DNA of 21,164 bases from Rhizaria sp. SCN 62-66 (taxonomy: Eukaryota), in contig MEDY01000191.1 in NCBI GenBank assembly GCA_001724265.1, positions 62,001 through 83,164 on the forward strand, in the 5' to 3' direction. The position numbers and the translations under genes are program-made. Positions 325 to 21,164 of the stretch are shown here, in pieces (positions within the stretch are counted from its first letter, which is position 1; the number at the start of each line of letters is the position of its first letter). The notes under the pieces are model-generated. The model was not told the DNA's origin and made no database searches. It saw nothing but the letters and a program-made list of their open reading frames with translations.

Positions 325-2679
325 TCAGGCGCGCTTGCGTCCGCGCCCGCGGCCATTACCGACGCGCGCCATGATGGCGAGCACAAGGGTCGCGGCGGCG
401 TTGGCTGCGGCGACCAGGACGGTGCCGGCGACGGACACCACGGTCGCCGCCACGCCCCACAGATGAGCCAGCGTCGCGTCGGATGCGGCATCGCTCTCGG
501 AGACGGCACCGGTCGCACTGCCATCTCTGGCGGCGGCGACGGCGGTGTCCGCGGACGCTCTCGGGCTGGTGGTGCTGCTGCTGCTGTCATTCATGTTGGC
601 GCCCGCGACGGGGGTGCCGGGGAAGGCAAAGGAGCTGGCGCGGGTCAGCAGGCTCAGCGCGAGGCTGGGGGCGCTACTCTCGCTGCTCGCAGGCTGCTGC
701 TGAGCCGCCTGCTGCTGCTGCTGCTGCTGGCGCAGCAGGGCCTTGCGCGCCTTGCCGCTGCTGGCGCCCTTACCCGCGCGCTTCTTGCCGGGGGACTGCA
801 ACGCGAGCTGGCCGCCCGCGGCGACGGCCTTGCGCGCGGCCGCGGCCGCGTCGCGGTGCTCGTCGGCCCCGTCGTCGTCGCTATCCTCCTCGTTGTCCGT
901 CGCCCAGCCGGAGTCGTCGCCACGCGCCTCTTCCGCGTCCGCGCCGCCCTTGCTGCGCACCATAGTGACCGCCGCGCCGCTGGCGGGCGCTACTGGGGTC
1001 GCAGACGAGAAGGACGACGACGGCGACAGGGAGCCGTCACGATCCTTGCTGTCGCCGCCAGCGTTGCTGCTGAGGTTGCTGCGGTGGCCCTTGCCGGGCG
1101 TCCGCGACGCCTTGGTGCTCGCACTTGCGTTGTCGTTCATCTAATCACTCTAGCGGCGCAGACGGCGGAGCGCGGCGGCCTCGGCCTCAGCCTCAGCGGC
1201 AGCCTCAACGGCGTTGGCGGCAGCCGTGGCGGCAGCGGCGCGGGTGGCCTCGGGCCCCTGGTAGGAGAGGTAGACCTCGAGCACGGTGACCATGATGCCC
1301 GAGAGGAGCGGGCCGAGGATAACGCCGATGGTGCCGAAGACGTAGAGACCCATGGCGAGCGAGGTGCCGACGAGGAAGGTGTTGCCAGGGATGATGCCGT
1401 AGATGAGCGAGTCGCCGGCCGAGAGCAGGAGCTGGACGGTGACGACGAGCACGGCTTTGACGGGCGCGCCGGTGATGGCGAGCCCCGCGGCGACGGGGAC
1501 CCAGACGACCCAGGACGAGAGCACGGGCAGCATGGCGGTGAAGCCGGCGATGAAGGACAGGATCAGCGAGATGTCGATGCCGACGAAGAGGAACACGAGG
1601 TACGTGCCGAGCATGTGCGAGAGGCCGACAGCGGTGGAGGACACGAAGACGGACACGACGGACTTGTTGAGCGAGCGCATGAGTTTGCCCGAGTCCTCCT
1701 GCGAGAAGGGCGAGAGGTCGGTGAGCAGCCCGCCCCACGACAGCTGCGTCTGCAGGAAGTAGAAGAGGCACGACGCAAAGGTCACGAACGAAACAAGCAG
1801 CGAGACCGAGTCAGCGAGCACGCCCAGGACGCCGCCCAGCGCGCCCGTGAGGTGGTTGCTAAACTGCATCGCAGTGTCGACGATCGTGGTCTTCACCACC
1901 GCGGCGTCCCAGGGCGGCAGCTCCCAACCCCACGTCTTGGCGTAGCGCTCGAACCAGAGGTAGTAGGGCGAGGAGCCGAAGTCGTCAAGCAGCGTCTGGA
2001 ACTGCGGGTTCTCGTCAACGAAGGCCTGGATCTTGGCGACCAGTGCCTGGGACTCAGAGATACACGACTTGACGAAGAGGAAGAGCGGGAAACAGACGAG
2101 GAAGGCGACGACGGCGAGGCACAGTGTGGCCGCCACAGTCGAGCGATTCGCCCAGATGAGGAAGGACCAGGCGGAAAAGACGACGGTGGCAACGAGCACG
2201 TTGAGCAACGCCTCGGAGCTGGTGAGCAGGATGAGGACGTAGACGGCGAGCGAGCACAGGTACACGGGGACGCGGTAGGCAGAGATGGCGACGTCGAGCC
2301 GGTCCAGCGCGCGCGTCGTCACCAGCAGCGGCTTGTGCAGGAACACGGACCAAAGCAGCGCCCAGAGGATCGGAGTGAGGTGCGGCAGCAACATGAGGCC
2401 GTTGTAGTAGACGAGCAGCACGATGAAGAGCAGCACGAGCACCTGCGACAGAAAGTCGAACGTGCGCTGGATGCGCGCCTTCTTCAGCTGGTTGTGGATC
2501 TTCATCAGATCAGAGTCGCTGGGGGCAAACAGAGAGGACGATGAGCACTGCTGCATACCACCCGCACTCGCGTCAGCGGAGCCAGAGGCATCAGAGGTTG
2601 TTGCAGACTTGTTCTGCCTGTCGCTGCTGGCGGCGTTAGGGGCTCCAGAGCCCTGTGCGCCGCGGTTCTTAGCGGACAT
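325..2679 (-). CDS. TMEM245-like / AI-2E transporter superfamily multi-pass membrane protein; 784 aa if TAGs at 1150-1152 and 1141-1143 are read as sense (509 aa if TAG is a stop)
   Basis: ATG at 2679. Many hydrophobic helices. Motifs HLTPILWALLWSVFLHKP, LSFIAGFTAMLPVLSSWVVWVP and GLYVFGTIGVILGPLLSGIMVTVLEVY resemble TMEM245/AI-2E proteins. ORF 1150..2688 and ORF 325..1140 are in the same frame, separated only by TAG AGT GAT TAG. Terminal TGA at 325-327. Confidence 0.8.
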
Positions 2680-3776
2680 TATGCCCACAAAAGATGTCGC
2701 TGCGCAGGTCAGGCATGTAGGTCCGGTTGCATTGCAAGATCAGTTCAATGACAAACGAATGGGTGCGGGAGAAGGTAAGTGAGTGAGCATGTGGATTTAG
2801 GCGTGAGGGTTGATTTTGGCGAGTCAATTTGTCAACAGGGTGATCGTCAAAGACAAGTGTTTTCACAGAAAATGACTGCATTTATAAAAATAAACGCAAT
2901 GTTCATAAAACATAACGGTGCCTTATGGATTCGACTCAGGACGCATCAATCTACGTCGGGGCCAGCTGTGCGCCAACTCCATACTGGCGCTCGCGCGGAT
3001 AATGTGATGCGCAGCCCAACGAAAATACGTATCTCCCTCAGCTACGCTCGCCTGAAAGATATTTTTCTGCATACTTTCACTAGATATCATAAGATGTTCG
3101 TGTGACAGACAGTATGCGTACATTTTGAGTTCATTCATGAACGTATGTACCCCCAAATCCATGTTGATAGTTTAAAACGAGTGACATTTGAATGAGCATG
3201 CATTTGTATTGCTTTCTCAGTTGCGAGCACAGAACGCATCATTTTGTGCACGTATAAAAGGTTTTGGATATTGAACAGTAGACTATAGAATGGAGGGTCT
3301 GCGCAGACAGAGAGGCGCAGCCACACTTGTTGAGACTAACTAAGCGATTGGCAGACACGAGGCAGAATCAGACAACAAGCCACTTCGCACAGACATTAAG
3401 TACGGAGAAAAAACTGGAACTGAAAGCGAAACACGACAGCGCAACGAAACTAAGAGATACAATAGATTGAGATGATACACTGAACATAAGCACATGATTT
3501 GGGAAAACATTTAAAAATATGCACTAAAAATGCTACTATCGTCAATTTTTGGCATGGTGTGAGAACTGATGCAGCAAAGCTCAAGACCCGAACTAGTCGC
3601 CGCGCGCGCTCAACGCCGCATACATGGTACTTAGACAGTGAAGACACTTAGAGAGCAAAAAAGGAAACAAAAGAAGAGATAAAATAGATACTGAGCTGTT
3701 TGGGAGCAGGCTTAAATTCATCCGTTGCCACTCCCCGCTCGCAGCAGCCAGCGGCACCGGCAGCAGACAGCACACC

Positions 3777-4046
3777 TTACTGCTACTGGTGCTGCTGCTG
3801 CTGCTGGAGCTGGCGCTACTGGTGGTCCGCGACGACCTGCGCGACGAAGATCTGCAGCAGCTGGTCGGGGCCGACGTGCTCGAACTGGCCCTGCAGCCCA
3901 GCCAGCTGCTGCAGCCACGCCGCCAGCACCGCCTCGCGCTCCGTGGGGACGGGCTCGACCAGCTCCGCCAGCTGCCGCAGCTGCTGCACATGCGACTCCT
4001 GCAGCTGCAGCAGCTGTTGCTGCTGCGGCTGCTGCGGCTGTTGCTG

Positions 4047-4089
<43 letters not shown>

Positions 4090-5025
4090 AGCTGCTGCTG
4101 GTAGTGCAGCTGTTGATGCTGTTGAAAGTACTGCTGCTGCTGCTGCTGCTGCTGCTGTTGTTGTTGCTGTGCCTGCGCCATTGCCTGAGCCTGAACCTGT
4201 GCCTGTGCCAGCGCTTGGGCCTGCGCCTGCGCCTGCGCCTGCGCCTGTTGCGCGAGGAGGAGCGCCTGGAGGTTGTCGAGCGCCTGCTGGTTCCCCTGCG
4301 CGATCTGCAGCGCGACCGCGTCGCCGAAGCCCGCCGACTCGCGCAGCGCCTGCAGCCCCGCGGGGCCGAGCGCGGCCAGGTCGCTGGCGCTCAGGCCCAT
4401 GCCGGCTACCTGCGCGGCGAGCTGAGCGGCGACCGGAGCCTGCGGCGCGGCGGGCGGCACCCCCAGGCCGCCGCCTACCGGGGCGCCCGCGAGGACCAGC
4501 GCCTGCAGCAGGAGCTGCTGCTGCTGCTGTTGCTGCTGGAGCTGTTGCTGCTGCTGCTGCTGCTGCTGGATTTCGACCTGGAACTGGTGCTGCTGCTGCA
4601 CCTGCTTGAGCTGCCGCTGCATTTGCTGCTGCTGCTGCTTCTTCTGCTGCTTCTTGTCCAGCGGCCCGGGAGACAGCTGAGGCGCGGCGCCAGTGAGCAT
4701 GTACCCGTTCGCTGCGGCTGCAGCTGCCGCGGCGGCGGCGCGGGCCTCCTCGAGCGCGCGCTTGCGCTCGCGCCCGTCGCGGTCGCGCTCCTCGCGGGCC
4801 CGCGCAGCCGCCGCGACCTCGGTTGCAGCCACGGCCGGGGGCGCCCATTCGGCCCACTTGTCGGCCACCAGCGCGCGCGCCTCGGCCAGCACGGCGCTGA
4901 CCACGGGCAGGATCGCCTCGATGTCGCGCTCCAGCTCCGCGGCCGGCCGCGGGACGGAGGCGTCCAGCTCGGCCAACGCCGCGGCGTCGGCCGCGGCCTC
5001 GGCGGCCTCCGGGTCCTGCTCAGCC

Positions 5026-5057
<32 letters not shown>

Positions 5058-8000
5058 ACCGTCGCTGCCCGCACCACCAGCACCAGAGCGAGCGGCAGCG
5101 TTGTCGTCATCGTCGTCGTCTTCCTCGTCGTCGGTGGCGGCTGCGGCTGCGGGGCTGGGGGAGGCCAGCGGGGGCAGCCCGGAGCTGCGGCGCGTGCTCG
5201 TTTGCATCGGCACCCCCGTCTTGTTCCACCACGGCAGTCCGCCGTTCGCACCCCCACTCGCACTCGAGCCGGAGCCGGACTCGGCGGCAGCTTTCGAGCT
5301 AGCAGCAGCCGTCTTGCCGCTGGCCTCACCCTGTCCCTGGCTCTGGCTCTGGCTCGCCCGCGGCTTAGGGGCGAACGCGGGCCCGCCCTCGGCCGCGCGC
5401 CTGCGGCGCTCGTCGCTGTGGAGGTAGCCCGCGACGAGGCGCTTGGGCAGGCGCAGGCGCAGCGACGCCGCAGGCGGGTCCCAGTCGCTGGCGTCAGCCA
5501 GCTCGACGGCGCCCGCGAGTGGGTGCGACGGATCCAGCAGCTCGGGCGCGAACGCGGACCCGTCAGCCGCGATCACCACGATGCCGCGCGCGTTGGCCGC
5601 CGCCGCCCAGGCCGCCGCGTCGTCGGCCGCACCGGCGCCGGCGCCGTCGCCGCCCGCTGCTGCTCCCGATCCAGCTGCTACGCCTGCTGCTGCGCCTGCT
5701 GCTGCTGCTGCTGCGGCGGCGGCGGCGGCGGCACCGGGGGCCTTGGTGTTCCCGCCGAAGAGCTCCGCGGCGCGGCGCGTGATGGGCGGCGCCTTGAAGT
5801 TGGGCCGCGTGTCGGCCTCGTCGTCGGTGTGCTACTCGTCGCTCTCGCCGCAGTAGACGCCGGGCTGCAAGTCGGGGTCCGTCTGCGCCTGCGCCTGGAG
5901 CGCGGCCACCGAGGGCGGCGGCGGGCGCGCGGTCGCGAAGCGCGCGCGCACTGAGGGCAGCACCAGGGCCGCGATGCGGTCGGCTACGTTCGACGGCGAG
6001 TCGACGTCGGCGAAGTAGCGTGACTGGAAGCAAACAAACAATCGAAATTGGAATAGGACAACGCGATATGTGAGAATTATGAAGTGAAAACAAAATAATC
6101 AAGGTTAAAACAAAGTAAACAATATTATATGAAGTAGTTATACGTGCAAGAATAAGATATCATTTCGTTTTCTCTTCATAGTGTTGCGTTTTAGCATACC
6201 TGCAGGTCCATCTCATCGAGCGCGGGCAGCGGGATGATCCGCAGGTCCTCCCCGCTGGCGACGATCGCCTCCACAGTGGGCGCCTCCTCTGGCCCCTGGC
6301 CCTGCAGCCGCTGCTCGGCGTGCTTGGCGAGCGCGCCGGGGAGCCAGTTGCGCTGGAGCCAGTCTGCGCGCAGGTCCCGGAGCCGCGCCTCGAGCACGTG
6401 GCCCGCGACGCGGTACTCGACCAGCTGTTCGTGCTCCAGCGCCACGCGCTCGTAGTCGCGCGCGCGCCGCAGCCGCCGCTGGTGCAGGCGCCGCAACAGG
6501 CGCAGCCGCTTCCAGCCGCGCTGCAGCGTGCGAAGTTCGCGCTCGCGGTCGCGGCGCGCGGCGTCGAGCGCCGCCAAGCGCTGCGCTTCGCGCGCCGCCT
6601 TGTCGTCCTCGCGCTTGCGCCGCTGCTGCTCGGCGTGGGCGCGCCGCTCCGCCTCGATGCCGCGCAGCCGCTCCAGCTCCGCCTCCTTGCGGTCCGCCAC
6701 CGTCACGCGCGAGCGCTCCGAGCGCTTGCGCGGCAGCAGCTGCAGCCGCATGCGCCGCTCGGCGGCGCGCGCCTTGGTCGCGAACGACGCCCACAGAGGC
6801 GGCAGCACCGCAGTCAGCAGCGCCGTGTGCAGCGCGGCGGCAGCGCGCACGGCGCCCGCGGCGCGCGGGAAGGGCGACGGAAGCGCGAGACGCGCGGCAA
6901 CGCGCGCGCGGGCGGCCGCCTTGCTGTCACCGTCCTCGTCTTCGTCGTCCTCGTCGCTCTCCTCGTCGTCGTCGCCGCCGTGGCGGGGATGCGCCGTGGC
7001 AGCAGCCTTGCCGTGGCCGCCGCCGTCCGCGCCGTTGTCGTCGCCGTCCTCGTCGTCTGCGGCGGCCGCGGCGGCGGTCTGCGCGTTGCGCAGCGCGCGC
7101 GCGGCGCGGGCCTCCTTCTCCGCGGCGGCGGCGGCGGTTGGCGCGACTGCAAGCGCGCCGCGCAGCGCGTGGGCCAGAGCCTCGAGCTCGGGCAGCGAGG
7201 TTGCCACCACAGTCCACACCGGGGTCGGGGCGGGGGGCACGAACAGCCAGCCGGGACACTCTTCCAGCAGGTCGATCGCGCTCGCACTCGCGCTGGCGCT
7301 GGCGTTGGCAGCAGAGGCAGCGTTGTGGCCGTCGTCGTCGTCGGCGTCAGAGGCGAGGTCGGAGTCGTCGCTGACGTCGCTGTAATTGTTGGCCCCGTCG
7401 CTCTCGCTGGCGTCACCGTCGCTGTCAGCCTCGGACGCAGCCTCGGAATCGGACGCATCAGCCGCAGACTCGGCCTCGGCCTCAGTCTCAGAGGACTCCG
7501 ACTCTGTTTCTGACTCAGTCTCGGAACTCTGCTCATGCGCACGTTTGCGCCCGCCGCGGGCCGCGCCGCCCCGGACGGTCGTGGCCTTGGCCGCCGCGGC
7601 CTTAGCAGGCGTCTTCTGCCCCCGCGCACTGGCGCCCTTGGTCGATGCGCCCTTGACGGGGGTGGCCCTGGCGGAGCGGGATCCGCGGGGACTGGCGAGC
7701 TCGACCTCGCTCTCACTGCCACTCTCGCTGCCACTGCCACTCTCGCTGCCGCTGGCGTCGTCGCTGCCGCTAGAGCCGCGCCTAGCGCGCTTGGACGTAT
7801 TGCTGCCGCCACGGCCGCCGCGGCCGCCGCGACCACCGCGACCGCCGCGGCCGCCGCGGCTCGTCGGGGTCTTAGCCGGGGTCTCCTTGGCCGGAGTCTT
7901 ACCGCCCTTGCCGCCCCTGCCGCCGCTGCCCTTGCTGGGCGTCTGGTTCTTCGCCCGCTCGGCCTTAGCCGCGGCCTTGGCCTCGGCCGCCGCGGCCTTG

Positions 8001-9990
8001 GCCTCGGCCCTGGCCCTGGCCCGCGCCTTGTCGCGCCGCCGGTCGCGCCGCGCCTTCTCGCGCGCGTTCTTGGCGGCCACCGCGCTGTCACGGCCGCCGG
8101 TGAGCTGCGGCGCGACGGGCGTCTCGCGCCACACCCACGTGTCGTCGGGAGCGAAGCGCCAGTAGAGCCCGCCGCAGCCGTCGGCGCCGATGGGGCGCGG
8201 CCGCAGCCACTCGAGGTCCGCGCCGGGCGCCGCCGCCGCCGTCTCGTGCTCGGTCAGCGCGGCGCCGTGCGGGTGCGGCGCGAGGAGCGCGGCGACGGCG
8301 GCCGTGCCGGCGGGCGGGACGGCCAGCTCGGGCGGCGGGAGCGGCGGGCAGCCCGCGTGAGCCTCCTTGAAGAGCGTGTCGGCAGTGTCGAGCTGGTGTT
8401 GGCACAGCAGCAGCAGCACGTGCAGCCGCTCCTCCACGCTCAGCGCGGAGAACGACCGCAGCGCCGGCGCGGGCGCGGGGGCGGACGCCGGCGCGGGCGC
8501 AGCACTGGTAGTCGTGACGGGGTCCGTGTCCGTGTCCGCGGCGGCAGCGGCAGAGGCGGCGGTGGCGGAGGGCGGGGGCGCGGGGCCGTGCACTGCGGCA
8601 GCGGCAGCGCCGTCGCCGTCGGTCATAGCTGTAATTGCAGTCTCACCGGCGATCGCAGTAAGGGATGTGTCCGCAGAGTCTGTAGTCTTGCTCTTGCCGG
8701 CCTCGGTCTCGGACTCTGAGCCGGAGTGCTCATGCTCGTTGTCGTGGTCGTGGTCAGAGTGATCGTGGTCGTCATGATCGTCCTCGTCGTCGTCCTCCTC
8801 ATGGTCATGGTCATGTTCGTGGTCATCGGCGTCGGCGTCGGCGTCGGCAGCGGCGCCACTGCTGCTGCTGCTGCCGCTGCCGCCGCTGCTCTTGGCCGCG
8901 TTGGCGGCGCGCGCGGCGGCGCGGGCGGCGTTGCTCCTGTTACGGCTGCGGCTGCTGCCGCCGAGCCAGAGCCGGCTGCGGTTGCGCGAGCCGCTGCGCG
9001 CGCCGTTGGCGAGGGCCCTCTCAGCGGCGCGCTCGGCGGCGGCCGCGGCGGCCTGCGCCTTGGCCTCTGCGCGGGCCTTGTCGACGGCGGCCTGCTCGGC
9101 ATTGGTGAGCCGCGGCGCCGTCATGGGCGTCCCGCGCAGGTCGTAGGCGACGGCGACGTCGGCCAGCACGGCGCGCAGCACCTCGGGCCAGCGGTGGAAG
9201 TGGGACTCGCGCAGGCGCTTGAGCGACAGGCCGGCCGCGGGCACGCCCGGGATGTCGCGGCCCTTGTCGAAGATGAGCCGCCAGATGAGGTGGCCGAAAA
9301 GCGGGGAGGAGTCGGGGAAGATAATCGCCTGCTCCAGCTCGTCCAGCGTGTAAGGGCCCAGCGCGAACCAGGGCTTGAAGGCGACGACGAACGACACCAG
9401 GGCGGCGAAGCGCCACGAGGGGCGCAGCTCGGCTGGGTGGGCGCGGGGTGGGGAGCAAAAAAGAGAGAGGGACGCAGAAAAAGCCGTTGTAAAATATAGA
9501 GCGAGTGTTCAAGTGAGCGGTGCAGATGTGGGGCGCAATGCGAGCGAGATGAAAAGAGACACTGTGCGCGTTTTGGCGCTCTCGACCAGATACTCCGATG
9601 ACAGCAGATTCGGGGCGAAAGAGTGGTTTGGGCGCGCAGAAGCGTTACAGCGCGCAACAAGCAGGTGCCAAGCAGCTGAGTATCTGGTACATCGGCGGCG
9701 CCGGCGTTGGGCAGAGCGTGGCACGGTGCCAGCGCAGGCGAAGGGCAGAACAGGCGTGTGCGCGGGCTGCCGTCAGAGTGATGTGTGGTGGCGGGACGCG
9801 TCGGGGCGTGCGAAGAAGCGAAACAGGGATATAAATAGCATGGCAAGATAAGAAACGTACCCCGAAGACGGTCCGCCTCTGCGGACGTGTTGCGCTGGAA
9901 GATTTCGTGCTGCGTGAGCTCGTGGTCGTCCTCATCGGGCGCCTGCGAGGGGGAGCCGAGGGGCTGTCCGGCGCCATGTGAGCCGCTCAT
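3777..9990 (-). CDS. DDT-WHIM domain chromatin-remodelling accessory protein (RSF1/CECR2/plant DDT-like), about 1869 aa; join complement(9861..9990, 6200..9432, 3777..6023) with three internal TAG codons
   Basis: Splicing exon 1 to exon 2 rebuilds a DDT-like segment (RLRAELRPSWRFAALVSFVVAFKPWFALGPYTLDELEQAII...LIWRLI). WHIM1-like FSALSVEERLHVLLLLCQHQL; WHIM2-like LRPRPIGADGCGGLYWRF...WVWRE; WHIM3-like WTVVATSLPELEALAHAL. Both introns are GT-AG and phase-compatible. Exon 3 stays in one frame through TAGs at 5832, 3816 and 3783 to TAA at 3777-3779. The 3' end depends on the genetic code. Confidence 0.8.
3780..4650 (-). repeat. CAG/CAA-rich polyglutamine and (QA)n coding region at the C-terminus of the DDT-WHIM protein
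   Basis: Long (CTG)n/(TTG)n runs on the + strand at about 3790-3806, 4000-4170 and 4510-4650, plus GCCTGC hexamer repeats at about 4170-4245. Confidence 0.9.
6024..6199 (-). other. Spliceosomal intron 2 of the DDT-WHIM gene (176 nt, phase 0)
   Basis: Donor CAG|GTATGC, acceptor TGTTTGTTTGCTTCCAG|TCA, AT-rich; joins DEMDLQ to SRYFADVD in frame. Confidence 0.88.
9433..9860 (-). other. Spliceosomal intron 1 of the DDT-WHIM gene (428 nt, phase 1)
   Basis: Donor G|GTACGT; pyrimidine tract ending CCCACCCAG|CC; the splice restores the N-terminal helix of the DDT domain. Confidence 0.78.
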
Positions 9991-10509
9991 TTACCAACGC
10001 AATTACTCACCAAACAAAGCTGTGGGTGTTCACACAACAATCAGAAATGTAAAAAATTGAGTGTCAATCTCCAAAATGCTTGGAAAATTTCACCTCTCAA
10101 TCGTCTACACACGTCAGTTCGAAATTCATCTTCGCGCCGACACGCCTCATCAGCAATCGCTCTCGGCGCGGGACCGACTGACCGACCGCCGAGGAGGTTC
10201 CCAAAAATCCCAGCCCTCGTTTCGCTCTGAGAGCGAAGGAGCACTTTGGTGAACGTATCTTCTGCGTTCTATCACGACCGTTGCTGTCCGTCTGCGTCAT
10301 TGTTTAGCGCTGACCACAAACATTGAGCATTTTTCTTACGTTTTCTTTTGCAAAACCTCTCACTTTCGTTTCTACCCTTCCTGCGCCTTATTCTTCTGGG
10401 TGCTTCCCAGACTAGGTTCGTTTCTCTTCCTTCGACCTACGACCGCGCTCCGTTGCTCTTCCTCAAAGTCTCTTCTACTTCTGTCTGACGGACACGTTGT
10501 GCGATTGTC

Positions 10510-10783
10510 ATGAGCAGCCCCTCCCCAGCTGCAGTGAAGCCCTTCGCGCTGGGCGCAGCACTGGGCGTCGCCTCGGCTGCGGTCGCCTTCTGGCTCTTCT
10601 CTCGTCTCGCCCCCTCGCCCTCAAAGAACAGTAATGTGGGTGTGAACGCCTCCGCGTTGAGTCTGGCCGAGGATGGCGATACGCCGCCGCCGCTCTCCCC
10701 GCTCCCGCTGCCGACTGCCACATCTGTCACTGTTTCCGTACCGCCCCAGCGCGCTCCGCTGCACGTATCCGTCGCCGACGCAG

Positions 10784-10828
<45 letters not shown>

Positions 10829-13221
10829 GCAACAGCACTACAAGCAGCAGTGGCCTTAATGGCAGCCTGAGCGACAAGGCGCCCCGCACCCTTGGCCTTG
10901 GCCTCAACACGAGCGCCAACAGCAGCAGCGCAAGCAGCAACGGCAACGGCAACAGCTCCCGGCGCAGCTACGGCGGCCTCGTCTCCCCGCGTTCCGCCGG
11001 TGTCCTCTCCCCCACCGCCGCGCACCGCGCTGCTCACGGTTACCCGGCCGCCACCCCCAGCGGCGGCGGCAGCGGCAGCGGCGGCCGCGCCGCGCGTTCC
11101 CCCTGGGCTCCCTCGCCCTCCTGCAGTAGCAGCAACAACGGCGGCAGCGGCAGCGGCAGCGGCAGCGTGACTCCTGCCGAGCGGGCGCGCGCGCGGCGGC
11201 AGTACGTGCGCTCGCACCTGGCGGCGCTGTCCTCCGAGCGCGCCTTGGCAGACGCTGTCGTCGCCGTATTCGACACCATCGTCCAGCAACGACCCGCCAA
11301 CAGCAACAACAGCAGCAACACATCCACTCCCTGCGAGACCGCGTCCTCATTCTCCGGCCCATTGTCGCTCAGCTCGCCGCCGCAGTCGCACGCGCGCGCC
11401 GCCGCGGTGTGCGCGGCGCTGACGACACGCGAGCCCCTGCAGGCGGCGCTCTCGTTGGCCGAGGTCGAGGCCTTCCTGGCCGCGCTGGGGCTGACCCAGA
11501 GCGCCAAGGCCGCCGTGCTCGTGGCCCTCCGCGGCACGGCCGCCGCCACCGCCGTTGCCGGCAGCAGCGTGAGCGCCGCGCCGCGCGTGGGCGACGGCGG
11601 CCGCGCCAGCTCGCCTGCCAGTGCCGACGCCGACAGCGCCGCCGACGCCGACGCGGGCTGCGAGGGACTGCTGTTCACCCGCGCGGCGTTTGAGGCCGCG
11701 TTCCGCGTGTGGGACAGCGAGCCCGCGGCGCGCGCCAAGCTCGACGCCTTTGAGCAGTACTACGTCGAGCAGTACCTGCCCACGGTCACTGACGGCGCCA
11801 GCAGCAGCAGCAACGCTGACGGCATCGGCGAGGGCGCTGCGGACGAGGCTGGTGCTGCTACTGCTGCTGCTGCTGCTGCTGCTGCTGTAACTGCCACTGT
11901 GCCGAGTGCGCGCCCCGCTGCCGCCCCTCGAGGCTCCCGCAGCAACGCCTCTGGCGCTGGCGCTGGCTCTGGCTCCGGGGCCGGCTCTACCACAGGTTCC
12001 GGGGCTGCGACGCCCGCGGGCGCCACCACTCCCGCCGGCGGCTCCCCCAGCGGCGTCGTCCGCCGCGTCCTCGTCTCCAGCGCCAACAACAACGGCAGTG
12101 GCGCTCATGCGGTCAGTGGCAGTGCAGGCGTAGTGCCGGCCACTCCTGCTAGCAACAACAACAGCGCGCCTGTGTCCCCGAAGCCTGCCAGCAGCTGCAG
12201 CGGTGCCTCTAGCGCGCCTGTTCCCAACGCCAGCGCCAGCGCCAGCGCCAGTGCTAGTGGTGGCCGTGTCGGCGGCTCGACTACCCGCGCCCGCCCGCTG
12301 CCGGCGCTCATTTTCCCCGAAACTCCCCGCACCGGCCCGAGCTCGAACAATAACATCAGCGCGAGCAGCAGCAGCAGCAGCAGTAAGGGCGCATTCACAT
12401 TCGCTTCTGTGCCCGAAGACTCCCCTCTCCCTAACTCGAACACTCCCGGCGACGACGCTCGCAGCAAGCTCACTGGCGGCGCCACCGCGCGCAGCGGCAG
12501 CGCGCGCAGCAGCAGCGGCGTGGACGTGTTCCTGGGCGGCGTGTGCGGCAGCTCCACGTGGCGGCTCGACACGGCCATCCCGGCGCTGGAGCGCCACGGG
12601 CTCTCCTACTACAACCCGCAGGTCGCGGACTGGAAGCCCCAGGTGATGTGCCTGGAGAACCTCATGAAGGCGTGGGCTCGGTGGCAGCTCTTCGTGGTCG
12701 ACGCCTCGACGCGCGCGACCGCGAGCATGGTCGAGGCCGCGGCGCTCATCGCCGAGGGCCGCAAGGTCGTGTTGGTCCTGGCCGCTGTCGCCGCGGGCGC
12801 GCAGGTCGACGGCGGGCCCGCGCTGGGTGAGCTGGAGGCCAAGGACCTCAACCGCGGACGCGCTTACCTGCGCGAGGTCGCCGCGGCGCACGGCGTCGCG
12901 GTGGCAGAGACCGTCGCGCAGGGTTGCGAGCTGCTCGTGGCCGCCATCGAGACTGAGGCCGAGGCAGAGGCCGCCGCGGAGGCGGAGGCAGAGGCGGAGG
13001 CGGAGGCGCGCGCTGCCGAAGCCGCCGACGCGCTGGCGCTCGGCGTGGACGAGGCGGGGGATTACTATGGGGACGACGACGACTGCGACGGTGACGGCGA
13101 CGGCAAAGGCGGCTGCAACAGCGGTGGCCGGCTGGCTCGGGGCGGGGGGCCCGACTTTGAGAGCGAGGTGCGCATGATTCACTCCAGCGACGACGACGAT
13201 GACGGAAACGATAGCGATTGA
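10510..13221 (+). CDS. 903-aa protein with an N-terminal transmembrane anchor, long low-complexity linkers and a C-terminal Raw-like / nucleoside 2-deoxyribosyltransferase-like domain
   Basis: Single ORF from ATG to TGA. Hydrophobic FALGAALGVASAAVAFWLF near the N-terminus. Domain at about 12520-12950: DVFLGGVCGSSTWRLDTAIPALERHGLSYYNPQVADW...LFVVDASTRATASMVEAA...DLNRGRAYL, matching my recollection of the Drosophila Raw repeat (VFLGGSC..TTWR..AIP....YNPQV..W; DLNRGR.YL). Confidence 0.85.
10786..10827 (+). repeat. (AAC)14 microsatellite encoding poly-Asn
   Basis: Perfect trinucleotide run, in frame within the Raw-like gene. Confidence 0.95.
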
Positions 13222-13607: not shown

Positions 13608-14243
13608 TTACTCCTGCTTCTTCTTGAGCGTGATGACGACGTTGTCGTGCGCGCCCTGCAGCAGCAGCGGCGAGTCGTACGTCAGCAGCCCGCGCGTCTT
13701 GGAGTTCTTCAGCGTCGCGGCGAGCGCCTCGAACGTGTTGGACACCTTGTCGTCCTGCGCGCAGCACGCACGAACACAAATGCGAGTGGAGCATACAAAA
13801 GTGGGGATATGACACGGAAAATAAGCATTAATAAAAAAAATCGAAGTTATAATATGGGCCTCAAAATAAAACCGTTTAGGAGTAGTGAATTCAGTCAAAT
13901 ATCGAAATTAGTGCGCTGAAGTGAGTTCTGTGACGGACCTTGAATAGCTTGCCGAAGGTGATGGAGTAGGAGCCGTCGGCGTTCTCGGTGCCGAGGGCGC
14001 GGATAAACTCCTGCAGCAGCACAATCTCCTCCTCGTTCTTGCGCTTAATCTGCGGTGGAGGGAAGCCGGGAACAACAAATATATATGGGTAGACAGCAGT
14101 GAGATAAAAGGGCGACAGAGGGGAAGATCCGAAACGACGACGTAGCGAGAAGGATACGCAGAGCGAAAAAGAGGATCGAGCGGAAAGTATGTGTGTAGTG
14201 GGCATAAGCGTACCTCGTCGACAATGGCCTGGGACTGGGACAT
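13608..14243 (-). CDS. ABRACL: Costars family protein (ABRACL-like), 95 aa; join complement(14214..14243, 13939..14049, 13608..13754)
   Basis: Spliced product MSQSQAIVDEIKRKNEEEIVLLQEFIRALGTENADGSYSITFGKLFKDDKVSNTFEALAATLKNSKTRGLLTYDSPLLLQGAHDNVVITLKKKQE has the Costars signature (EEI..L...I..LG..N.DG...FG.LF.DD...N.FEAL..TLK..K......Y...LLLQG.HD.V.I.L). Two phase-0 GT-AG introns. An upstream in-frame ATG lies at 14279. If TAA is sense, the end moves to TGA at 13596-13598. Confidence 0.93.
13755..13938 (-). other. Intron 2 of the Costars gene (184 nt)
   Basis: AAG|GTCCGT ... GCGCGCAG|GAC; joins LFK to DDK of the conserved motif. Confidence 0.9.
14050..14213 (-). other. Intron 1 of the Costars gene (164 nt)
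   Basis: GAG|GTACGC ... CCTCCACCGCAG|ATT; pyrimidine-rich, phase 0. Confidence 0.82.
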
Positions 14244-20699: not shown

Positions 20700-21164
20700 A
20701 TGCGCTTCTCTACCCTCTTCATCGCCGCCACCGCTGTCGCGACCGCCGCCCTGGCCCCCGCCGCGGCCCAGGCCCACTCCACGGCCCTCGGCGCGCTGTG
20801 CTCCATCGCGCCGGGTCACGTGCTCTGCCTCGAGGCCGCGGCCATCGCCGAGCGCGACGCGGGCCTTAACATCGACCACGACGACGACGACTCGGGCTCG
20901 TGCTCCTGCTCTGTCGGCCACCGCCACGACGGCGTCAGCCGCGAGATCGGCTTCGGCAACGGCGGCCGCACCGCCAGTACGCTCCAGTACAAGGGCAGCA
21001 AGGGCATGCAGGGCTCCTACAAGGGCATGCAGGACTCCTTCAAGGGCGGCAAGGGTATGCAGGGTTCCTTCAAGGGCGGCAAGGGCATGCAGGGCTCCTT
21101 CAAGGGCGGCAAGGGCATGCAGGGCTCCTTCAAGGGCGGCGTCAAGGGCGTGAAGGGCCAGTTC
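20700..21164 (+). CDS. Secreted Gly/Lys-rich repeat protein (3' partial; absent from the ORF track because it runs off the window)
   Basis: ACCATG at 20700, open for 155 codons with strong C/G-ending codon bias: MRFSTLFIAATAVATAALAPAAAQAHST... (signal peptide, probable AQA cleavage site), four Cys, a DHDDDD patch, then KGGKGMQGSF repeats. Confidence 0.85.
   Translation, partial: MRFSTLFIAATAVATAALAPAAAQAHSTALGALCSIAPGHVLCLEAAAIAERDAGLNIDHDDDDSGSCSCSVGHRHDGVSREIGFGNGGRTASTLQYKGSKGMQGSYKGMQDSFKGGKGMQGSFKGGKGMQGSFKGGKGMQGSFKGGVKGVKGQF
20991..21140 (+). repeat. 30-bp coding tandem repeat (AAGGGCGGCAAGGGCATGCAGGGCTCCTTC, KGGKGMQGSF), about 5 imperfect units
   Basis: Directly visible; units differ by synonymous changes, a few replacements and one 9-nt shorter unit. 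Confidence 0.92.

Follow-up and report, generated by a model that had tools for sequence, protein, structure and literature searches.

In-frame TAG codons in two adjacent genes suggest frequent or general decoding of TAG as an amino acid in a GC-rich metagenome-assembled eukaryote

Structure and predicted product of gene B

The window analysed here, 21,164 nucleotides of contig MEDY01000191.1 (Rhizaria sp. SCN 62-66), is a piece of the nuclear genome of an uncultured eukaryote, assembled from metagenomes, and is present in wastewater, bioreactor and activated-sludge runs of several studies. Its exons are GC-rich, with a GC content at third codon positions (GC3) of 0.8-0.9 (about 0.86-0.89); AT-rich sequence makes up the intergenic DNA and all but one of the six introns, the exception being intron 1 of a gene termed gene B. 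This gene, located on the minus strand (9990-3777) and modelled with three exons, carries an in-frame TAG in its third exon (5832..5834; context GAG TAG CAC, next base C), beyond which the coding frame continues. The adjacent gene A (2679-325, minus strand) likewise shows interruptions by TAG only, suggesting that an amino acid is inserted at TAG in this organism, frequently or without exception.

Exon 1 of gene B (9861..9990) starts with the ATG at 9990 and comprises 43 codons plus one base. Intron 1 (9433..9860; GTACGT...CCCAG, 428 nt, GC 0.59) is spliced out, as indicated by contig record 31 of run X6, which joins 9861-9995 straight to 9366-9432. Evidence from sequencing runs consists of assembled contigs placed on the window, and places without cover count neither way; X1 to X3 are DNA runs that contain the window, X3 being from another study, X5 is a polyA metatranscriptome, X6 a cDNA run, and X4, the type of which is unrecorded, belongs to the study of X5. 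Exon 2 (6200..9432) is an open frame with GC contents of 0.76/0.59/0.89 at the three codon positions and ends with ...DEMDLQ. A putative intron 2 (6024..6199; GTATGC...TTCCAG, 176 nt, GC 0.31, phase 0) was assigned by sequence and composition; the last base of its acceptor, ...TTGTTTGCTTCCAG, is 6024, and exon 3 opens with SRYFADVD... at 6023. At this putative intron, the only X5 contig listed (6009..6329) and an X4 contig (5903..6488) are unspliced, and no spliced contig is listed; intron retention, pre-mRNA or carry-over of DNA could explain the X5 contig. The 63 codons of exon 3 that precede the TAG occupy 5835..6023. The original prediction had placed the acceptor directly before 6023 and had named the TAG at 5834-5832 as the sole interruption of a long frame; both positions were correct, and the downstream frame (3819..5831) was counted as 671 codons. 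This continuation is rich in Ala, Asp and Glu, then rich in polyglutamine (polyQ), while its C-terminal 60 or so residues are non-repetitive. The end of the frame (3777..3818) is formed by a TAG (3818-3816), ten Q-rich codons, another TAG (3785-3783), a CAG, and a TAA (3779-3777) which is followed by G. The product of gene B would thus have 1184 amino acids (aa) if TAG 5834 acts as stop, 1856 aa up to TAG 3818, and 1869 aa up to TAA 3779.

Two further features were observed at this CAG-rich gene end. The 10-base string CACCAGTAGC occurs twice within 3782-3824 of the minus strand, 33 bases apart, each copy holding one of the terminal TAGs, which suggests a small duplication. A CAG run and a CUG run can pair in a hairpin (3699..3815; -64.5 kcal/mol, z-score -4.47) the loop of which contains the TAA of gene B; none of 200 shuffled sequences folded as well. 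The hairpin may be an element of the 3' end or untranslated region, or a mere by-product of the repeats.

With respect to its predicted product, gene B may resemble chromatin proteins of the DDT/WHIM type. Residues 13-49 of exon 2 match the DDT domain (PF02791; E 0.014, 15.9 bits, Pfam cut-off 22), and exon 2 also matches WHIM1 (PF15612; E 0.0013, 18.7 bits, cut-off 19.1), so that both matches lie below their cut-offs; they are located near the N-terminus and occur in the expected order. These candidate domains would follow the order of DDT/WHIM remodelling accessory proteins of the Itc1/ACF1/BAZ type. The rest of gene B is long acidic/basic low-complexity sequence and, unlike these proteins, has no detected WHIM2, PHD or bromodomain. 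A search of the PDB for relatives at E < 0.1 gave none, and none of the 8000 candidates scored in a word-index search for exon 2 homologues reached an E of 0.001. The tail, i.e., the part of gene B downstream of TAG 5834, had no match in family libraries and no usable match in the ESM Atlas.

Continuity of the coding signal across the TAG

The TAG at 5834-5832 is also carried by an X3 contig covering 5743..6984, which shows no differences and no gaps relative to the window. Since this contig is identical and originates from another study, the TAG is not an assembly slip of one sample. A 4-base deletion in a CCG repeat at 5911, upstream of the TAG, is seen in another X3 contig, with a depth of 5.9 of 57; it would shift the frame without opening the long one, because the next stops of the other frames are located at 5680 and 5565.

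On the minus strand, the translation reads ...GVYCGESDE up to the TAG and HTDDEADTRPNFK... after it. From 5831 to 3819, the frame of exon 3 comprises 671 codons without a stop, whereas the other two sense frames contain 5 and 8 stops. Because long open frames are common in such GC-rich DNA, continuity was tested in three ways. A stop-free frame over the 2013 nt after the TAG occurred only once in 2000 dinucleotide shuffles and once in 2000 codon-position shuffles, and a chance open frame in GC-rich DNA was rejected on these grounds. A codon-usage model was trained on 2934 codons of four confident open reading frames (ORFs) of the window, among which there is no TAG. According to the likelihoods obtained with this model, frame 0 beats the five other frames in 11 of 11 windows between 6023 and 4823, including those that span the TAG and those that lie after it; counting all windows, it is best in 13 of 18, and the five losses fall in CAG repeats, where the frames are indistinguishable. 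Expressed per codon, exon 3 upstream of the TAG scores -3.53 (frame 0 best), the entire continuation -3.59, and the 240 nt directly after TAG 5834 -3.54; the four confident ORFs have values of -3.47 to -3.77, and stretches of 240 nt that follow five TGA or TAA gene ends have values between -4.68 and -5.27. That the 671 downstream codons are coding sequence in the frame of exon 3 is well supported, and a coding tail in the same frame should therefore be translated together with exon 3, now or until very recently.

What had originally been predicted for this region agrees with these results. The acidic stretch continues across the TAG and the frame stays open to 3819, as seen from the translation and the lack of in-frame stops. 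The supposed absence of an AT-rich spacer or intron-like sequence downstream of the TAG is borne out by a GC content of 0.70-0.82 after TAG 5834. In-frame ATG codons had been stated to be missing for more than 150 codons; the first Met in fact is residue 209 of the tail (position 5207), preceded by 208 codons without Met. Codon usage, per-codon scores, GC content and the missing Met all speak against a separate gene downstream of the TAG, as had been proposed. The antisense ORF 4104..5954, which had been taken as a by-product of continuous coding sequence, does exist; its translation is not protein-like, being rich in R, L and G (R 16.6%, L 20%, K 0.2%) with almost no K, N and D, and it scores worse than frame 0. 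A convergent plus-strand gene in this ORF was considered and rejected, since frame 0 outscored the antisense frames in each of the 11 windows between 6023 and 4823. The comparison with orthologs that had been proposed for the TAG position was attempted, and the searches yielded no orthologue that covers the site.

Contigs of X5 lie on the region downstream of the TAG at 3861-3995, 4801-4953 and 5200-5498, and contigs of X6 at 3749-3960 and 5213-5448; the post-TAG region is therefore present in RNA libraries. X5 appears to consist mostly of RNA, because its depth is close to nil in intron 1 and in the spacer upstream, two places at which X4 does have depth.

A second case in the adjacent gene A

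The core of gene A (1153..2679, minus strand, 509 codons) encodes a transporter of the AI-2E family (PF01594, Pfam E 7.6e-21). The AI-2E domain ends at residue 470 of 509. Following the residues ...RRLRR, 39 residues past the domain, the frame runs into the sequence TAG AGT GAT TAG (1141..1152), i.e., into two TAG codons (1152-1150 and 1143-1141) which are three codons apart, with an ATG directly after the second one. The tail beyond this pair (325..1140) comprises 271 coding-like codons with a hydrophobic C-terminal stretch and closes at a TGA (327-325) with G as the next base and AT-rich DNA beyond. All 5 windows placed on the tail have frame 0 as the best one; the score is -3.49 per codon, and GC3 is 0.88. 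The openness of this frame, taken alone, is not significant (stop-free in 76 of 2000 and 257 of 2000 shuffles), so that the support for a coding tail comes from codon usage.

The gene A region is identical, TAGs included, in metagenome contig L001 (1927 of 1927 bases). Apart from this 1927-bp contig, a scan of metagenomes for more DNA of the organism or its relatives detected three distant loci of 25-31% identity; a collection of prokaryote genomes yielded one unrelated archaeal locus, and viral contigs yielded nothing, so that these three collections contributed no further contig of the organism. Gene A has five database relatives (P0004 to P0007 among them). P0004 and P0007 are relatives at 52-67% identity, the closest being P0007 with 67% in the domain; one database record of gene A names a contig of 55 kb. 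In P0007, one open frame covers the domain and a tail of some 210 aa, which is of low complexity and has a hydrophobic end, a layout like that of the gene A tail. The AI-2E cluster of the ESM Atlas nearest to gene A is eukaryotic, and Haptophyta is the most frequent label among its 8 members of known phylum, a weak hint at the affinity of the organism. A homology search with the gene A tail retrieved only the tail itself, called as a separate 271-aa protein (P0008). The two TAGs fall in a low-complexity stretch that cannot be aligned.

Stop codons and other genes of the window

In total, the 21-kb window contains seven genes, six of which end inside it. Besides genes A and B, it encodes a 903-aa protein with a nucleoside deoxyribosyltransferase-like domain (10510-13221), a small Costars-family protein (13608-14243, minus strand, three exons), a chromodomain protein (three exons), and a ubiquitin-conjugating enzyme (minus strand; UQ_con, E 5.7e-40), all identified by profile matches. 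The seventh gene is partial and is located at the right end of the window (20700-21164, plus strand); it has a signal-peptide-like start, MRFSTLFIAATAVATAALAPAAAQA, and tandem KGMQGSFKGG repeats of a secreted-repeat type, and a Pfam search with it gave no match.

Two gene ends are anchored by homology. Matches of Costars exons cover positions 3-33 and 34-75 of the 76 positions of the profile, with the junction exactly between 33 and 34 and the TAA at position 75; because the exon matches fit the profile positions, both the splice and the TAA stop of this gene are confirmed. Within the window, the Costars gene is thus a useful control, both of splice-site assignment and of the role of TAA as a genuine stop. 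In the gene of the ubiquitin-conjugating enzyme, a TGA is located just past position 139 of the 140 positions of UQ_con.

When the window is read through its TAGs, the 4000 codons counted include five in-frame TAG, no TAA and no TGA. In-frame UAG without UAA or UGA in clearly coding sequence, as expected of a code in which UAG alone is reassigned, is thus found in two genes. The six gene ends that precede non-coding DNA consist of four TGA and two TAA. The base after these stops is G in all six cases, the frequency of G at codon position 1 being 0.44, and the bases following the five TAGs are A, A, C, C and C, with G in none of the five. After the six TGA or TAA gene ends, the GC content is 0.22-0.44 at 51-100 nt and 0.28-0.46 at 101-150 nt; after TAGs 5834, 1152 and 1143, it is 0.66-0.82. 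The TAG pair of gene A is clustered at the start of the tail, and the last two TAGs of gene B are at the very end of theirs.

Proposed decoding of UAG and alternative explanations

The reading we favour is that UAG is decoded throughout the organism, as a reassigned or ambiguous codon, with UGA and UAA, each followed by G, as the working stops; we give this a chance somewhat short of even. In broader terms, UAG would be decoded here either in this way or by efficient readthrough. On the favoured reading, UAG would not be an effective terminator in the organism. A tRNA would read it as an amino acid, the decoder being either a dedicated tRNA with a CUA anticodon or a near-cognate tRNA-Gln(CUG). 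Ribosomes would thus pass the TAG and insert a residue there, and the rule would apply genome-wide. Decoding of UAG would be a property of the organism rather than of gene B; a cause at the level of the organism is favoured because the adjacent gene A has a TAG-only interruption too, and in tandem. Efficient decoding fits better than rare readthrough, because two TAGs three codons apart precede an intact tail. As to the residue inserted, glutamine is our guess, because two of the five TAGs are located in CAG runs (HQ-TAG-RQLQQQQQHQ-TAG-Q-TAA) and because the near-cognate tRNA-Gln(CUG) should abound in a CAG-rich genome. A more far-reaching proposal, which we put forward tentatively and hold to be possible rather than probable, is that the nuclear code of this uncultured, GC-rich eukaryote has UAG as a rare sense codon, probably for Gln, and only UGA and UAA as stops. 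This would be a further independent reassignment of UAG alone, outside the lineages described (a sainouroid rhizarian, a fornicate, and some ciliates), in a genome where TAG is expected to be scarce due to high GC.

A number of observations weigh against decoding of UAG by the organism. TAG is found in none of the 2934 training codons, in no conserved domain, and in none of the other five genes, and all five TAGs lie in low-complexity tails. TAG 3818 could be the true end of gene B, and since there are only six gene ends, the absence of TAG-terminated genes proves little. There are no tRNA genes in the window. An exhaustive HMMER search with exon 3 and the tail against 1.84 billion representatives revealed no orthologue over the TAG site; it returned two matches, a 69-aa protein called from the window itself and a polyQ sequence. 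Similarity of the gene A tail to that of P0007 falls short of significance (BLASTP E 1.7), and the TAG positions of gene A lie close to the ends of P0005 and P0006, two relatives that lack the tail, as would be the case for a genuine stop with a facultative extension. The RNA contigs listed include none that bridges the TAG. A 147-nt X6 contig (record 28) matches the window exactly over 5834..5930 and is unlike it beyond both ends.

The main rival is gene-specific programmed readthrough under the standard code, which we consider rather unlikely, if the least so among the alternatives. In this case, a fraction of the ribosomes would insert a near-cognate amino acid at TAG; gene B would yield a main product of 1184 aa and an isoform of 1856 aa ending at TAG 3818, and gene A would yield a short form and a rarer tailed one. 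The TAGs indeed occupy plausible natural ends, the gene A pair being situated 39 residues past the AI-2E domain, close to where P0005 and P0006 have their C-termini; the conserved cores are free of TAG; and, as expected of readthrough, the frame stays open beyond the stop and carries a protein-coding signature. A stop codon followed by C is in a leaky context, and C is the base after TAG 5834. Long extensions are known from Drosophila (PMC3840789; 10.1101/2020.06.22.165522). However, the tandem TAGs of gene A would square a low efficiency, yet the 271-codon tail is intact and has full coding-like usage. No stable fold, which might act as a stimulatory RNA structure, was found after the TAGs, the z-scores being +0.83 for the 120 nt after TAG 5834 and -0.42 for the gene A TAG, and gene-specific recoding would have to be very frequent to affect two of the seven genes of one 21-kb window. 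If, alternatively, TAG were an effective stop, the tails could be recently cut-off, untranslated sequences that have not yet decayed after fixation of nonsense mutations. The lack of any relative of the gene B tail among the 1.84 billion representatives, and hence of any sign of conservation, is compatible with this idea, and both tails, being of low complexity, may be dispensable. Such a history would nevertheless require independent TAG-only nonsense events in two adjacent genes, two of them within three codons in gene A, with the 271 and 671 downstream codons remaining free of stops and undiminished in codon bias, and the DNA run of another study has the same TAG; we regard it as improbable.

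A hidden intron or an alternative acceptor that removes the TAG from the mRNA would make recoding unneeded. X6 record 28 ceases to match the window once the T of the TAG is reached, exactly where a GT is located (5835-5834); furthermore, TAG ends in AG and, if used as acceptor, would join exon 2 to CAC... in frame, and the GC content of intron 1 (0.59) indicates that introns here need not be AT-rich. Yet record 28 also leaves the window at 5930, where there is no AG, and thus is not exon-like. The six donors of the window (GTACGT, GTATGC, GTCCGT, and GTACGC three times) all share a G at position +5; none of the eight GT sites of exon 3 before the TAG matches these known donors at all six positions, and GTAGCA at 5835 lacks the +5 G. 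The stretch preceding the TAG is purine-rich and devoid of a pyrimidine tract, in-frame coding statistics on both sides of the TAG are not expected of an excised stretch, and the TAG pair of gene A could not be removed in frame by a comparable intron, none being possible from the sequence. Hidden splicing therefore seems distinctly improbable to us. We attach even less weight to the idea that the downstream frames are separate cistrons, with the gene A tail translated from the ATG after the second TAG and the gene B tail from an internal start. In gene A, the second TAG is followed at once by ATG, as in a stop-start arrangement or at the start of a transcript of its own, the resulting disordered 271-aa product with its hydrophobic C-terminus would suit a tail-anchored protein, and the database holds this tail as a protein of its own (P0008). 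Gene B, on the other hand, is coding-like over 208 codons without Met after the TAG, an AT-rich spacer or promoter-like gap, as present at all other gene boundaries of the window, is missing, and P0007 combines domain and tail in one frame, which makes separate cistrons highly improbable.

Relation to known systems and implications

A search of the literature for a GC-rich protist with reassigned UAG, which did not extend to supplements, gave known cases only. Reassignment of UAG alone, with UAA and UGA retained as stops, has been described for the rhizarian exLh (UAG=Leu) and for Iotanema spirale (UAG=Gln) by Panek et al. 2017 (PMC5304391), who for exLh mention 384 in-frame UAGs in 71 genes, many of them at conserved Leu positions. 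Reassignment of only UAG has also been reported for phyllopharyngean ciliates (PMC11687900). These known cases are founded on UAGs that occur by the hundred at conserved sites. As in exLh and Iotanema, interruptions in the present window are by UAG only, and UAA and UGA are found as gene ends. In Iotanema, the first downstream UAG proved to be sense, with UAA or UGA located further on, and the end of gene B (TAG...TAG, CAG, TAA) looks alike. The window differs from what is stated for exLh in that there are five TAGs in two of seven genes, none of them in a conserved domain or aligned to a residue, and in that the exons are GC-rich.

Ambiguous codes, in which a codon is both stop and sense, are known from Condylostoma, Parduczia, karyorelicts and Blastocrithidia (PMC4967479; 10.1101/2022.04.12.488043; PMC12153298). 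In these, the codon is reportedly sense inside a gene and stop near the 3' end of the mRNA, and sense at TAG 5834 as opposed to stop at TAG 3818 or 3785 would fit such a rule. The ambiguous codes set out in these sources involve all three stops, or UAA, whereas only TAG is concerned here.

The readthrough stop of the Drosophila gene kelch is reportedly UGA. Readthrough with long C-terminal extensions, for example between ORF1 and ORF2 of kelch, has been documented in Drosophila (Dunn 2013, PMC3840789; 10.1101/2020.06.22.165522), and these papers reportedly describe, as is seen here, a stop followed by a long ORF with a coding signature, an extension that is largely disordered, and the possibility of short and long isoforms. 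The present case, as compared with these descriptions, is distinguished by tandem TAGs in gene A, by the lack of a downstream RNA structure, and by the involvement of two adjacent genes.

Databases hold pieces of these genes that are cut at TAG, namely a 69-aa piece of gene B, a 509-aa transporter, and a separate 271-aa tail. Since standard gene callers cut genes at TAG, predicted proteomes of the organism would be systematically truncated. Nuclear codes that split UAG from UAA are very rare. Codes of this kind bear on the discrimination of stop codons by eRF1 and on the way in which codes change; a GC-rich lineage with few TAGs could represent an early or low-usage stage of code change, which is predicted by theory and has seldom been observed. 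If readthrough were to apply instead, two long extensions in adjacent genes would indicate an unusually widespread use of recoding in a protist. Both readings would join known phenomena, and reassignment of UAG, if true, would be the more notable of the two.

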